Shown here: in pieces, positions 46,211 through 59,302 of the stretch | Layout: the number at the start of each line of letters is the position of its first letter | How positions within the stretch are numbered: position 1 is the stretch's first letter | Assembly (NCBI GenBank): GCA_021613535.1 | Contig: CP075496.1 | Span: forward strand, 3,224,001-3,288,000 | Source: Adineta vaga | Lineage: Eukaryota > Animalia > Rotifera | DNA length: 64,000 nt | Direction of reading: 5' to 3' | Made by a program: the position numbers and the translations under genes | Notes under the pieces: model-generated | Database searches by the model: none | Told to the model about the DNA's origin: nothing | The model's input: only the letters and a program-made list of their open reading frames with translations

Positions 46211-49040
46211 TTATAAAAGAAGACAATCAGTCTTTGTTAATGTATGACATGTATGACTTTGTCCAAGTTCACAACGACAGGTTGTCATACTAAATGCATA
46301 ATTTGTTGGACAGACAAAATCGTAACGAAGTAATGGTCCATCCGATGGTTGATTGTTAGTTGTACAAAAGTAAAATTTCGTACAATCGTACATATCTCGA
46401 TAAAGACCAGACTGACGTCCATTACAATCAAATACAGGTGAAGAACTACCTGATGTACGTAATAATTGACCTAAACCATTCAATGCAATCACTGCCGATT
46501 GAGGAATATTTGATGATATTGCAGCAAGTGTTGTTGTTGTTGTTGTACTTGCTGTTGCAGGTGTAGGTACAACACAAAAGGTTTCTCCTGTAGTTTGACA
46601 TGAACGACCTGATGGCCAATCACATGTACAAGCATCTATTGAGAATTCTAAACCGGGTGGACAGAAAAATATATGATAACGTAATGAATTTAAATCATTT
46701 CCTTCACAAACATAAAATATCGAACAATTCCGACGATCACGATAGATTCCATGTCGACCAGCTTGATGATTAGCACAAATATATTCAGCATTGTAAGTCT
46801 GATGTGCAAGTGGTGGTACTGCTGATGTTGTTGAGAGTGTAGATGATACTTGAATTGGTACCGATGGTGTCGTACCTGTTAATATACTAAGCGCATTTAA
46901 TAATTGTTGTAAATTATTAGGTAAAATAGGTTGTGGAGAAGTTGCTCCTGTTTGAGTTTGTACATTAATAAAACGAATTGGTGGACTATCAGTCACAGTT
47001 GTCATAATTGACGGAATTCTTTGTTGAACATGTGGTATTCGTGTACTTGTTTCAGGCACAGGTAGATTGAGAGTGGTAAAAGCTTGTCGAGTGATTGGAA
47101 ATGTTTCCGTATTACAAAAGAAACCGGAAAATTCTTAAATAGAATAATATATTTAGATGAAAACTCAACTTTTCAACACAAACCATCGTTATCAATACTC
47201 CAAATAAATAATCCAGCGAGTTGTTCTGCTTTAGCATATTGTGCCTAAAAATAAAAATATCGATCTTTTCAATTACTTGAGCTTTTGTTGTCAAAATTAC
47301 TTTCAATGCAGCAGAATCCACATCTTCATAACTGATCCATTGATCATCATTAGTCATATACCAGCCTTTTTCCGAATCTAACCAAACTCTTTGCCAATTC
47401 TGAGATTGACCTTTTTCACAAACCTAATGTAAACAAAAAGAATCAGTCATGCTTCTTCCAAAACATTCATAGAAAAATCATTCTTACTTCATAATAAGAT
47501 AGGAAACCTCGAGTTTTAGTATATTGTCCAGGATATCCAGGACCATTGGCTAACGAGAAAAGAATCATTAAAAAAACTAAAATTCAAAAATTCAATTTAC
47601 TTGGTGCATGAAGACCTTTCTGTTCTGTTGATAATGTATACGAACGACCATAAGCTGGAATACCAATAATTAACTTTTCACGTGATACACCTAGACTAAG
47701 CCATAGTTTAACTAGACCATCCTATAAAATTTCTTCGCATACAAATGAAATATTCTCACAGATTAAACATACGACATTTCGGAGTGATTCAGTTTCTATT
47801 TGATAATGTTGATGAAATAATGGTGCTGATATACCTGTTTTCTCATCCCATGGACCTGATTTACAAGCATTTTGAATAGTTCAATAGTTGTGTAAATATT
47901 TATACTTACCATAAAAATCAAACGTCATTAGATTAATATAATTCACCAGACTTAAAATCGAAACATTCCACTTAAACATTAGTTCTCATTTTTATCAATA
48001 TTACCTTTCAATTTTTCGGATATCATAAACTTTTAAAAGATTTTCGACATACGGTGCAGCTGTTAAAGTAATAACTGTTCTCAACATCAATCGTCTTTGT
48101 TTTCCAATTTCCTAAATAAAACACAAAAATTCATCTATACTTTCTTCTTCTCAAATCAATTTCAATCAACTTCAAGTAATGCTGTCAATGCTGCTTTCGC
48201 ATCTGGAATATCAGCATCAGGAAATTCAAGTGCAATATCTACACCATCAAAACCATGTGTTGCCATATACCTAAAACAGATATTGAAAGTAACAAAGTAA
48301 CTAGAAAGTTTGATCTTGAAAGAACTACCAAATTAGACTTCGAACAAGTTGAGTAGTCGTTGTAGAGAGTCTCAAATATCGAAGATAAAGAGAAATCTTT
48401 CCTCCTAAACGAATTAAGATTTTTAAATTTGGATTTGTTTTTTTCAATAGAGACAATTCACGATAATGTTCTGAAAAGAAAATTGACAATGCCTTTTCTA
48501 ATAGATTTCTTTTACGTAAATGCAAACCGAGATCATCTTTTTGTGCAGCAATTATCTCTGGTTTTTGAGCATCAACAGTTGCATATGCATAAATAATATG
48601 ACTACACATAAATGGATCGATGAATTCAATTTCAAATTTTGCTTCACCAGATCGATATCGAGACCAATTCGTAACATAACATACACGAAGCATTTTTGAT
48701 GGTTCTTCTTCAATTGGAGCTATCAAAAGACACAACAACAAACGAGAATTCCATGAGATTAGTTATTTGTTTTATTTCAAAAATAAATTCTTTTCATTGT
48801 TCCTTTTGAAAAACTCAACAAAATCTTCGATAATCGTGTTAAAGGAATTTCAATTGTTATGGTACAGAAAGAAAGAAAGAAAGAAAAAAGAACACGAATG
48901 ATCTAATCATTGATTCTTATCATACTCTCAGACATACTTATTCGATTTGCATTAACATTATTTCTTTGACCAACAATAAAGATGAGTAGGTTGAATGTGA
49001 GGTAATACATCAGCGATTGTAATGGATAATATTGACCCAT
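46211..49040 (-). CDS. GH18 chitinase-like protein with two C-terminal CBM14 (ChtBD2) domains
   Basis: Signal-peptide exon 49040-48938; RVCYVTNWSRYR, CSHIIYAYA, FDGVDIALEFP, MTFDFYGPW, GIPAYGRSY, GLFIWSIDND; Thr-rich linker and two Cys-rich CBM14 domains. Confidence 0.92.
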
Positions 49041-56737: not shown

Positions 56738-58295
56738 ATGTCTATAAATACTATATTGACGAATCTCAATCGAACGAATACAACGAAAATACCAGGTTTA
56801 TCCGAAGAGACTTCTCCTCCGGTAGAAGACATATTTGATTTATCATGGAATGATATTATCTATGATGGTGGCTTAGCAACATGGTTTACACGTTCATCAT
56901 TTCGCTGGCTAAATATAGCTGTTTGTTTAATCGGTATTATTGGTAGGTCGTTTTCGTATAATTTTTTTTACTAAAATTTATGCATATTTATTTTTCTCAG
57001 GTAATGTTCTGGCTGTTTGTACATTACTTCGACGTCGTATGCGTAACTTATCTACCTATGCTTATTTAACAGCATTATGTTTATCAAATACAATAACATT
57101 ATCATCTGTAATTATATTTGAATTAGAAGTTTTGTTCGCTCCGAATCGTTTCAATTGTATTCTTGTTGTATCAGCGAAAACACTTGCATCAAGTACATTT
57201 GCATTATCAACTTGGTATGTTCATGATTTTTCTGAATGAATTGAAATCGGATTATATTTAAATTTTTCTTTTTATAGGATTACGGTAGGTTTTACTGTTG
57301 ATCGATACATTATGATTTGCTATCCATTTACCGGAGAAAAAATGTGTACTCGTCGAAATGCTTTATTTGTCTTAACGACATGTTTATTTTTCGCATTAAC
57401 TTATTTAGTACCGCAAATGTTAGCCAATTCTTGTCACACAATGCCATATGGAAATTCGATTAATAGAACAAATACAATTCAGAATTTTTCAAGTCAAATC
57501 CTCAATCGAACTGACCTCTATTCTATTGTTTTTTGGGTATCTGGTCTAAGTGAATTCGGTAAATCTCTTGCATATCGTTCAACTATAACTTTATTTGTTA
57601 ATTGTTTTCTTGTTCGTATTATTCCATTTTTAATTGTTTTCAAATTGAATTTACATTTAATTCGTACACTTGCTAATGCCAAACGACGTCATCGACAAAT
57701 CAATCCCTATGAACAAAAGCGCAATGATGTTACATATATGTTAGTTATTGTGATATCAATTTATTTAATATGTATTACACCATCAATTCCATTTGCTGCT
57801 TTCTTTGCATATAATCCCGATAAATATGTTAGTATTTCATATCGTTATCGCGCCTTTCAACATCTTGATGAATTTGCGAAATTTTTGATGATATTCAATT
57901 CTGCGTCACAATGTTATTTGTATATCTTCTTCGGTAAACGTTTTCGTCGAGAATTAACACGTTTATTGTGTTGTTTCTGTATGAAATATTTCTATATGCC
58001 ATTACCACAACATTTAACAAATAATAGTGATCGAGAAACATTTCTACCAGATTTTGGAAATAATAATGAAACATTTGAACTTGTTCTTAGTGGTAAATGG
58101 TCATTAGATCAACGGCAAGATTCTATAGCTGGAATTGAATTTAGTTTTCATCATCCAAGACGATGGAGTCGATTAACATCATCATCAGCAACAACAGGAC
58201 GTTCAAATTCGGAATATAGTGAAACTCAAATTCGTTTTGGTTTATTACAACGTCTAAAAACTCGTGTTGAAAAATTTTTTGCTCGTTTTCATTGA
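56738..58295 (+). CDS. Rhodopsin-family peptide GPCR (FMRFamide/sex-peptide receptor-like)
   Basis: Three coding exons; GIIGN in TM1, STYAYLTALCLSN, TVDRYIMICYPF, ICITP, and TM7 NSASQCYLYIFFGKRFRREL. Confidence 0.9.
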
Positions 58296-58447
58296 ACGGA
58301 TTTCTTTCTCTTGTATATTTGTTTATACGGTCTCCGTCCATTTTATTTTTTTCATCTCAAAAATAAAGAATAACACAAGACATACAAGAAAGAAAAAACG
58401 AAGAATAAGCAAGCGCATGAATGTGTTTATAATTGGTCATACGTTCA

Positions 58448-58863
58448 TTAACATGTTCGATGTGATGATGGATTAAATGTGGTACCACCAATGTCATAAC
58501 AACGAGTAGCTGGTGTATCGAATTCTTCTTGAAAAATACGTTTTGTAACAGCAATAAAGACATAATTATCACACCAAATACGACCCCAGACAGCTTCAAA
58601 AGGAAGTTCAAGTGTGGAACATTGTCCGACCGGGTATTTGCCTGTTTCATAGGTACGAGTACGACCATCACTAGTTCTTGAGTCCAAACCACATTTAGCA
58701 ACGTAAGCTCCTCGATTACATACCTTAACTGATCCTTTATTCGATGAACTCACTTCTAGAAATGAAATATTTACAAATTCAATCTATACTTATCAAAGAA
58801 ATTCTCTTTACCTAAAATTAAAACACTACAAATGATCACGAGATAAGCAAACATCGACGACAT
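58448..58863 (-). CDS. Secreted 119-aa protein resembling a stand-alone cholesterol-dependent cytolysin domain 4
   Basis: Exon 58863-58812 (signal peptide MSSMFAYLVIICSVLIL), 56-nt intron, exon 58755-58448. Mature part: KGSVKVCNRGAYVAKC...STLELPFEA...IGGTTFNPS, against the recalled perfringolysin D4 pattern KGKINLDHSGAYVAQF...STVIPLEANA...IWGTTLYPG. Confidence 0.8.
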
Positions 58864-59302
58864 TTTACTCTTTGAAATGACAATTATATCGACAAAAAAA
58901 ACGTTCGAATTTATTAGCAAAACAAATCATTAATCCATATGTAATTGAGACTATCAATATATGTGTATGTGCACTCTTAAAGCCTATATGATTCGATTGT
59001 GGTCCGATAGTAACTAATACCAATATATCCATTATAAATATTGAAATTTTTATATATTTTTTTTCACAACAGAATAAAACAAAATTGCATGTAAAATCAG
59101 ATGTACATAAAGAAAAGTTTTCTTTAATAACAAATAACAATAGGTGATTAACAATAAAAACAGATCATTTTGCTCGATAATATCGCAGATAGAAGAAAAG
59201 CTTCTAGAAAAAGTTTACTTATGAAATTTATAATAGAAAAAAAAAATATATGGCTGTAGATAAATAGAAGCTAGAGTGCATTTCGTTCACTTTGATTATC
59301 AG

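Follow-up and report, generated by a model that had tools for sequence, protein, structure and literature searches.

We report that a gene of the bdelloid rotifer Adineta vaga encodes a spliced, conserved homolog of domain 4 (D4) of the cholesterol-dependent cytolysins (CDCs), standing on its own. The gene lies on the minus strand at positions 58,448 to 58,863 of a 64,000-nucleotide (nt) stretch of assembly GCA_021613535.1 (contig CP075496.1, positions 3,224,001 to 3,288,000 of the forward strand). This whole stretch is called the window below, and all coordinates are those of the window. Domain 4 is the part of a CDC that finds the target membrane. A preliminary description, made from the letters of the window, had proposed a stand-alone D4 lacking the pore-forming domains 1-3; transitive, profile-profile and structural searches now agree on the homology, and the product is indeed a single-domain protein of 119 amino acids (aa). 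With regard to its function we lean towards a secreted, non-lytic binder of membrane surfaces, a view which is weighed against its rivals further below.

The gene was read from the sequence as two coding exons with one intron between them. Its features are the following, with residues numbered on the 101-aa translation of exon 2 (P0001):

58864..58881, minus strand: short 5' untranslated region (UTR); an X5 contig turns adapter-like past 58881
58863-58812, minus strand: coding part of exon 1, 52 nt; from the sequence, the spliced contigs of runs X1, X2, X5 and X16, and the leaders of orthologs
58863-58861, minus strand: start codon ATG; from the sequence
58811-58756, minus strand: 56-nt phase-1 intron, GT..AG; skipped exactly in four runs from four studies, kept in X15 and X18
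58755-58448, minus strand: coding part of exon 2, 308 nt, with the entire D4-like beta-sandwich (residues 1-101); from translation, AlphaFold, Foldseek and VIA
58711-58697, minus strand: GAYVA, residues 15-19; aligned by HMMER to GAYVA of suilysin and pneumolysin D4
58541..58567, minus strand: NYVFIAVTK, residues 63-71; placed by HMMER opposite the CDC undecapeptide
58486-58469, minus strand: GTTFNP, residues 90-95; opposite GTTLYP (CDC loop L1) in the alignments
58450-58448, minus strand: stop codon TAA; from the sequence
58318..58447, minus strand: 3' UTR of about 130 nt with a poly(A) site near 58318; from a run of T before 58318 in a single X5 contig

The homology was reached by sequence through intermediates. 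Searched alone by phmmer against 1.84 billion representatives, the exon-2 protein finds 54 proteins at E<=1e-3, ten of them at E<=1e-10. PF17440, the Pfam family of CDC domain 4, is listed at E<=0.01 in 20 of the 51 matches that were scanned, and seven of the 51 pass its gathering cut-off of 23 bits, below which the window protein itself falls. Among PDB sequences no match was returned either by phmmer with the window protein or by hmmsearch with a 10-sequence profile. A profile was also built from 22 relatives without any Pfam family in their precomputed annotation; it gave 26 PDB rows at E<=10, and 25 of these are CDCs aligned end-to-end over D4. The best is suilysin (E 5e-6), and the others include intermedilysin (3.7e-3), pneumolysin D4 and listeriolysin O (both 5.2e-3) and perfringolysin O (0.05-0.07); the sole row that is not a CDC is triosephosphate isomerase, at E 1.1. 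A profile-profile comparison, which had been suggested as a check, points the same way: ten bdelloid-type sequences set by hhalign against 12 metagenomic cytolysin fragments carrying PF01289 and PF17440 align over 89 columns with probability 96.2 and E 2.6e-9. The top named cluster of the ESM Atlas is bacterial (score 0.94, 208 features) and has PF17440 in 17% of its members, which we regard as a lead agreeing with the other evidence for homology.

The structural comparison is based on a predicted model, and the D4 fold spoken of here is that of the model. Given an alignment of 58 sequences, AlphaFold produces eight strands with a mean predicted local distance difference test (pLDDT) of 94.2 and a predicted template modelling score (pTM) of 0.84. 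Foldseek against the PDB returns 34 matches at E<=1e-3, and all 27 rows listed from ranks 1-32 are CDCs. Listeriolysin O is the best match, so that CDC D4 does come out on top, at 1.6e-8, in the very search by which the preliminary description wished to see its idea examined; isolated pneumolysin D4 is matched with template modelling (TM) scores of 0.70/0.64. Identity to toxin D4 in the Foldseek alignments is only about 14-21%. VIA-align, run over 48,161 chains, places pneumolysin D4 at Z 13.3 with a root-mean-square deviation of 2.1 Å over 97 residues, then two other CDC entries at Z 13.1 and 12.9, and the first unrelated chain at Z 8.2.

The protein thus shares with the D4 of pneumolysin, suilysin, listeriolysin O, perfringolysin O and intermedilysin (PF17440) the same beta-sandwich, and it has GAYVA and GTT[LF]xP in the same order and register. 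This was the observation from which the homology had been guessed, and the HMMER alignments bear it out; that the likeness goes beyond chance follows from the E-values of the PDB profile search and of hhalign together with the Foldseek and VIA scores. The differences from the toxins are no less clear. The rotifer protein is without domains 1-3 (PF01289), so that oligomerisation and pore formation are not to be expected of it. The stretch corresponding to the undecapeptide is a shorter, Trp-free hairpin, and this copy has Thr-Phe where the toxins have Thr-Leu. It has three putative disulfides, the C-terminal one of which is common to the stand-alone family, and a eukaryotic gene structure.

The gene, its transcripts and its product

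Exon 1 encodes a signal-like leader of 17 codons (MSSM, then 13 residues that are uncharged or hydrophobic) and the first base of a Glu codon, which the intron interrupts after that base (g|aa). The mechanical list of open reading frames (ORFs) opens the exon-2 frame at the GTG at 58753. It had been proposed that an upstream 52-nt exon supplies an ATG through a 56-nt phase-1 intron instead, and both the sequence and the spliced contigs confirm this. In contigs of X1, X2 and X5, from three studies, 58755 is joined to 58812 with exactly 56 nt skipped (CT..AC on the plus strand). An X16 contig from a fourth study has the identical joint, its short side being only 24 letters. The splicing of the signal exon in transcripts, on which the earlier proposal hinged, is therefore seen in four runs from four studies. 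The contigs of X15 and X18, both of one sample, retain the intron. The presence of spliced contigs beside intron-retaining ones indicates that the joined form is a processed transcript and not an intron-less DNA copy in those samples. That the runs with spliced contigs are RNA is a guess made by software, and their depths should not be taken as an expression ranking. It is unlikely that the transcripts come solely from contaminating organisms, since the neighbouring genes are metazoan and the gene has an intron. Within the 64-kb window tblastn found no second copy of the D4-like gene.

With respect to the transcript ends, the X1 contig extends to 58985, and therefore the end of an X5 contig at 58881 does not fix the start of transcription. 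Some minor differences between contigs and window may be recorded here. Over 58475-59000 the X18 contig differs from the window in 6 of 526 letters, one of them intronic. An A>G at 58601, which is synonymous (third base of the Pro51 codon), is common to X18 and an X16 contig. The X18 and X16 differences look like those between alleles, homoeologous copies or strains. Further, one letter at 58598, in a T/A run of the coding exon, is missing from three X5 contigs (depth 86.7 of 796), probably through a homopolymer error of assembly or sequencing.

The protein is predicted to be secreted. In Adineta ricciae, A. steineri and Rotaria magnacalcarata its orthologs, which are 119-120 aa long, open with the same MSS and hydrophobic leader, and the UniRef name of the A. 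ricciae ortholog is 'Secreted protein'. Identity to the window protein is 82% in A. ricciae, 80% in A. steineri and 71% in R. magnacalcarata, and 70-82% across Adineta and Rotaria.

The exon-2 protein has six Cys, at 12, 21, 45, 61, 85 and 101, as had been counted for the mature chain; a seventh is found in the signal-like exon. C85 and C101 occur together in 53 of the 58 relatives and never singly where both columns are filled. All six Cys are present in 18 of the 58 sequences, while 27 of the 58 have the last two alone. Of the extra four, a Rotaria sordida paralog keeps only C21 and C61, and one other relative only C12 and C45. Because of this pattern of co-occurrence we infer the disulfides 12-45, 21-61 and 85-101, which are also the pairs (C1-C3, C2-C4, C5-C6) that the preliminary description had suggested and with which the 58 relatives are consistent.

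The loops can be assigned from the HMMER alignments, the order of strands in the model and perfringolysin numbering, by which we take GAYVA to be L2. On this basis L2 would comprise residues 14-18 and L3 residues 37-44; the undecapeptide would have its equivalent in the turn at 67-68, and residues 91-94 would be L1. The four would be grouped at the same end of the sandwich. C12-C45 would then staple the bases of L2 and L3, and C21-C61 would link strand 2 to the strand entering the undecapeptide-equivalent hairpin, so that the two together would stiffen the presumed binding tip; the family-wide C85-C101 would sit at the opposite end.

The sequence of the loops is partly very stable and partly variable. 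G90 is invariant and G15 at least 90% conserved among the 58 relatives, and G15, G90, T91 and T92 are invariant or nearly so throughout the family. The L1 pair was said to be Thr-Phe, and it is Thr92-Phe93 in the window copy and also in the Adineta orthologs. Residue 93 varies between F, L and I, other orthologs having Thr-Leu or Thr-Ile, and the second paralog group has Thr-Leu throughout, except for one divergent member. The undecapeptide was rightly described as replaced: NYVFIAVTK is two residues shorter than that of the toxins, has neither Trp nor Cys, and retains of the toxin residues just the Ala and the basic one at the end. Since hhalign and HMMER place the gaps of this region differently, the local alignment is uncertain. 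In the AlphaFold model strands 54-66 and 69-79 flank a tight beta-hairpin with its turn at Ile67-Ala68, and Phe66 and Ile67 are at least 90% conserved in 22 relatives.

Relatives and origin of the D4-like family

We file the protein as a divergent PF17440-domain homolog belonging to an undescribed family of stand-alone and tandem D4-like proteins, and not as a CDC. The family is defined by the sequence-search matches of the window protein and its relatives. Its members have a domain of about 100 aa in which the motif N-x-G-A-Y-V-A stands close to the beginning and G-T-T-[LF]-x-P close to the end, and the window protein has both. The majority of the matches are unnamed metagenome proteins. The named ones come from bdelloids (Adineta ricciae, A. 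steineri, Rotaria sp., R. magnacalcarata, R. sordida and Didymodactylos carnosus), from the monogonont rotifer Brachionus calyciflorus, from two sternorrhynchan hemipterans in which they lie on megabase contigs (Bemisia tabaci and Parthenolecanium corni), from bacteria, and, as one MMETSP fragment, from a protist. In the literature that we could search, which did not cover subscription journals and supplements, we found no relevant link between CDCs or cytolysins and rotifers or bdelloids, no description of a natural stand-alone D4 protein, and no studied function for the bacterial stand-alone or tandem D4-like proteins.

Relatives are fused to Peptidase_C1, astacin/M10, Ricin-B, tectonin, PASTA or leucine-rich repeats (LRRs), and often have two to five tandem D4-like repeats; one protein with tandem D4-like domains behind a peptidase or lectin domain sits on a 2.4-Mb contig. 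This suggests that the tandem fusions are secreted enzymes targeted to membranes or surfaces, an architecture that is uncharacterised. Two relatives may be artefacts of gene models. In the Brachionus calyciflorus protein (245 aa) some 130 residues without a family match come after the D4-like domain, and its source name refers to a farnesoic-acid methyltransferase domain; a 202-aa relative (P0041) has LRRs joined to a truncated D4-like domain.

Among the bacterial proteins of the same family are WP_409124008.1 (a secreted 124-aa protein of Streptomyces niveiscabiei), MBL7827008.1 (Saprospiraceae) and MBW7885117.1 (Caldilineaceae), found by phmmer at E 7.6e-4 to 1.1e-6. The metagenome-assembled genomes (MAGs) in question include that of a Chloracidobacterium, a Caldilineaceae MAG with PASTA and a D4-like domain, and a Saprospiraceae MAG with Peptidase_C1 and five D4-like repeats. 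Like the rotifer protein, the bacterial proteins have about 100 aa per domain, some of them have signal peptides, and the stand-alone member in the alignment has the C-terminal Cys pair. Unlike it, they are intron-less and do not have its two additional putative disulfides. A Trp stands opposite T70 in many unnamed relatives, but not in the Streptomyces protein of the alignment. The hemipteran proteins XP_072152574.1 (Bemisia tabaci, 118 aa), KAK7602708.1 and KAK7576292.1 (both Parthenolecanium corni) are also animal D4-like domains of about 100 aa with a signal-like leader, on chromosome-scale contigs. They are 28-38% identical to the rotifer protein and have two Cys instead of six, and they stand on the opposite side of a supported split, although a common origin is not rejected. 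An expressed whitefly gene annotated 'Thiol-activated cytolysin', which need not be that of the 118-aa protein, appears in Table 4 of a published study (PMC5426028).

For the phylogeny, 184 domain hits were reduced to 167 by removing rows that cover less than most of the domain, and to 152 by dropping 15 near-identical ones; a careful tree was made with 66 rows picked by hand from the 152, over 104 columns. In this tree the bdelloids form one clade of eight named and seven unnamed rows (support 98/92). It consists of three groups. One holds the orthologs of the window protein, another likewise has six Cys (100/99), and the third unites Rotaria sordida with Didymodactylos (100/99). Next outside come Brachionus and several unnamed rows. 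The toxin D4s linked to PF01289 are a separate clade (100/98), and a 97/91 branch parts the rotifers from them, from the insects and from the named bacteria. The tree is poorly resolved. An approximately unbiased (AU) test did not reject a tree in which a single branch separates all 12 named animal rows from the ten named bacterial or toxin rows (p 0.635), the constrained tree being better by 6 log-units. Separate transfers into rotifers and into insects were considered and dropped in view of that p 0.635, despite the 97/91 branch.

Three short metagenome loci, on contigs of 1.1-1.7 kb, encode relatives of the rotifer-side clade that are 29-48% identical. A pattern search with three sequences in a prokaryote genome collection gave 172 pattern matches and no confirmed relative of that clade. 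The ESM Atlas has clusters of hypothetical proteins of 118-152 aa, mostly from Mucoromycota, with scores of 0.88 and 0.93, and a fungal branch of the family is possible; there were no fungal names among the matches of the HMMER searches.

From the sequence comparisons we conclude that the gene is a member of an old, duplicated rotifer family and not a recent fragment of a toxin. Because the family is spread so patchily across animals, horizontal transfer seems the likeliest origin, and a bacterial source is plausible. The preliminary description had spoken of a domesticated bacterial domain. The patchy occurrence (rotifers, two hemipterans and bacteria) agrees with that part, but a one-off toxin fragment it is not, there being at least three bdelloid paralog groups in a family that is not that of the toxins.

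The domain itself is known, and the domestication of CDCs in animals has a precedent. According to a 2026 report (PMC13670155), Gram-positive bacteria were the source of 16 full-length CDCs, 490-680 aa in length, that leafhoppers have acquired. Part of these are toxic and expressed in the egg serosa, while others, such as RdCDC9, are non-toxic and gut-expressed; the same report states that CDC genes were not found in other insects (PMC13670155). The likeness of RdCDC3 and RdCDC9 to our case is that of a CDC-related animal gene with a signal peptide and a presumed non-lytic use. The leafhopper proteins have the pore-forming region and are described as nested in the Gram-positive toxins (PMC13670155), whereas the rotifer protein is D4-only, 119 aa long and on a non-toxin branch; our trees are of sequences other than those of leafhoppers.

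Possible roles of the protein

In our opinion the protein is probably a secreted, non-lytic binder of membrane surfaces with a single CDC-D4-homologous domain. A D4 sandwich held by three disulfides would be secreted, and its conserved tip, made of L2 (GAYVA), L3 (TGKYPVGQ), the hydrophobic hairpin Phe66-Ile67-Ala68 and Thr92-Phe93 of L1, would dock on a target membrane as toxin D4 does on sterol-rich membranes. Since it has no part with which to oligomerise or to insert, the bound protein would mark, coat or block the membrane instead of perforating it. Candidate targets would be microbial membranes, those of prey, or the rotifer's own, and the most likely setting would be defence or surface recognition. 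That relatives have repeatedly been joined to peptidases and lectins also fits a role as a targeting or binding module. Engineered D4 fragments are standard laboratory probes for cholesterol in cell biology, and they bind as isolated domains without lysis, as the rotifer protein would do naturally. These probes are excised from toxins and still have the undecapeptide and Thr-Leu, whereas the rotifer protein is natural, diverged and rich in disulfides.

A number of points weigh against this interpretation, or against the homology on which it is built. By hmmscan the window protein matches no Pfam family at E<=10, so that the direct comparison with the Pfam D4 model, which had been proposed as a check, failed; likewise, none of the ten sequences of alignment A1 matches PF17440. 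The alignment given to AlphaFold contained relatives labelled PF17440, and a prediction from the single sequence is poor (pLDDT 60.6): CDCs lead its Foldseek list, with none at E<=1e-3. The signal peptide was read by eye, and the assignment of loops depends on the alignments, the model and the numbering mentioned above. The Thr-Leu pair is reported to recognise cholesterol in the toxins, and here it has become Thr-Phe and the undecapeptide is gone. Finally, GTT[LF]xP and GAYVA are also kept in relatives from soil bacteria, and they may be structural rather than specific for sterol.

For these motifs to be purely structural would suit a reuse of the sandwich away from membranes, for example in protein binding, as a component of matrix or egg shell, or as an inhibitor. 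Beta-sandwiches are versatile, the motifs persist in relatives from very different organisms, and added disulfides are what one would expect of a stable extracellular structural protein. On the other hand, the conservation is strong in the very loops with which the toxins contact the membrane, and the tip of the hairpin is hydrophobic, with F66 and I67 conserved at 90% or more in 22 relatives; we consider such a role quite unlikely. A lectin, the targets of which would be not sterol or lipid but the glycans of microbes, of food or of the rotifer's own surfaces, deserves somewhat more attention, although we are doubtful about it too. The relatives are fused to Ricin-B, tectonin and secreted peptidases, as carbohydrate-binding modules often are. 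The structural matches include the PDB entries 'Sugar Binding Protein Pneumolysin' and 'pneumolysin in complex with mannose', and judging by these titles toxin D4 can hold sugars. The pair in the window copy is Thr-Phe rather than Thr-Leu, and one ortholog has a weak CBM_19 match (E 0.078), probably by chance. However, the conserved motifs are those of membrane-facing loops, and fusions to lectins are equally compatible with a D4 that adds a different, complementary specificity.

Two further ideas of the preliminary description concern pore-forming toxins directly. As a decoy, the protein would occupy sterol sites of the rotifer's own membranes or bind toxin monomers and in this way block bacterial CDCs. 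It has the fold of toxin D4 and the same L1 and L2 motifs without the lytic part, isolated toxin D4 is reported to compete with the whole toxin, and bdelloids do live among the bacteria of soil and moss. Yet it is far from toxin D4 (separate clades, and the low identity in structural alignments given above), and three paralog groups together with relatives in bacteria argue for a more general binding role, so that we give the decoy little credence. Still less probable, and in fact very improbable, is the targeting subunit of a two-component pore former with a separate MACPF/CDC-like partner. It was proposed by analogy, and the analogy is what speaks for it. No MACPF or PF01289 pore-forming ORF is present among the 72 ORFs of the window that were scanned, none of the fusions that were found joins a domain of this clade to a pore-forming domain, and the D4s linked to PF01289 are in a separate clade.

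If we return to the membrane-surface binder that we prefer, a more specific form of it can be stated, which we offer as tentative and hold to be less than an even chance. Rotifers, and perhaps whiteflies, scale insects and some fungi, would have secreted, disulfide-hardened, D4-only probes of sterol, which would coat the sterol-bearing membranes of fungal or oomycete pathogens or of prey, or would shield their own membranes from bacterial pore toxins.

The findings are of interest at different levels of certainty. Animals carry natural, expressed D4-only proteins, and these belong to a large family that current Pfam models mostly miss, the D4-like binding modules of which stand alone, occur in tandem or are fused to peptidases or lectins. 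If the binding of sterol or lipid is true, the rotifer proteins would be recognition or defence molecules of a class new for animals, they would offer natural specificity variants (Thr-Phe, Thr-Leu, Thr-Ile) for the design of probes, and they would represent a second, different route of a toxin module into animal biology, beside the leafhopper CDCs. Should the sterol-probe form be the correct one, we would have a non-lytic animal use of the targeting module of a toxin and a ready-made family of membrane-lipid sensors. And even if binding fails, the family is still an uncharacterised and widely spread extracellular domain.

Neighbouring genes

The window has a G+C content of 26-35%, and the other genes in it are ordinary animal genes, as judged from the scan of 72 ORFs. 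These include an OSR1-type kinase, Ig and Kelch pieces, MT-A70, CAP-Gly, ETF and Brix, as well as an intron-split class-I tRNA synthetase. Two neighbours may be listed:

56931-58295, plus strand: rhodopsin/Srw-type G-protein-coupled receptor (GPCR) gene of at least two exons; 7tm_1 E 7e-12, Srw E 3.4e-10
46214-48762, minus strand: two CBM_14 (peritrophin-A) chitin-binding repeats and the start of a GH18 chitinase; from the ORF family scan

The GPCR gene is convergent with the D4-like gene, and its end at 58295 is about 23 nt from the putative poly(A) site of the latter. The 2,235-nt X1 contig reaches 1,605 letters past 58300 into the GPCR gene. The two convergent transcripts may overlap, or the X1 contig may merge both. 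The CBM_14 and GH18 ORFs are apparently one gene for a secreted chitinase, about 10 kb from the D4-like gene.

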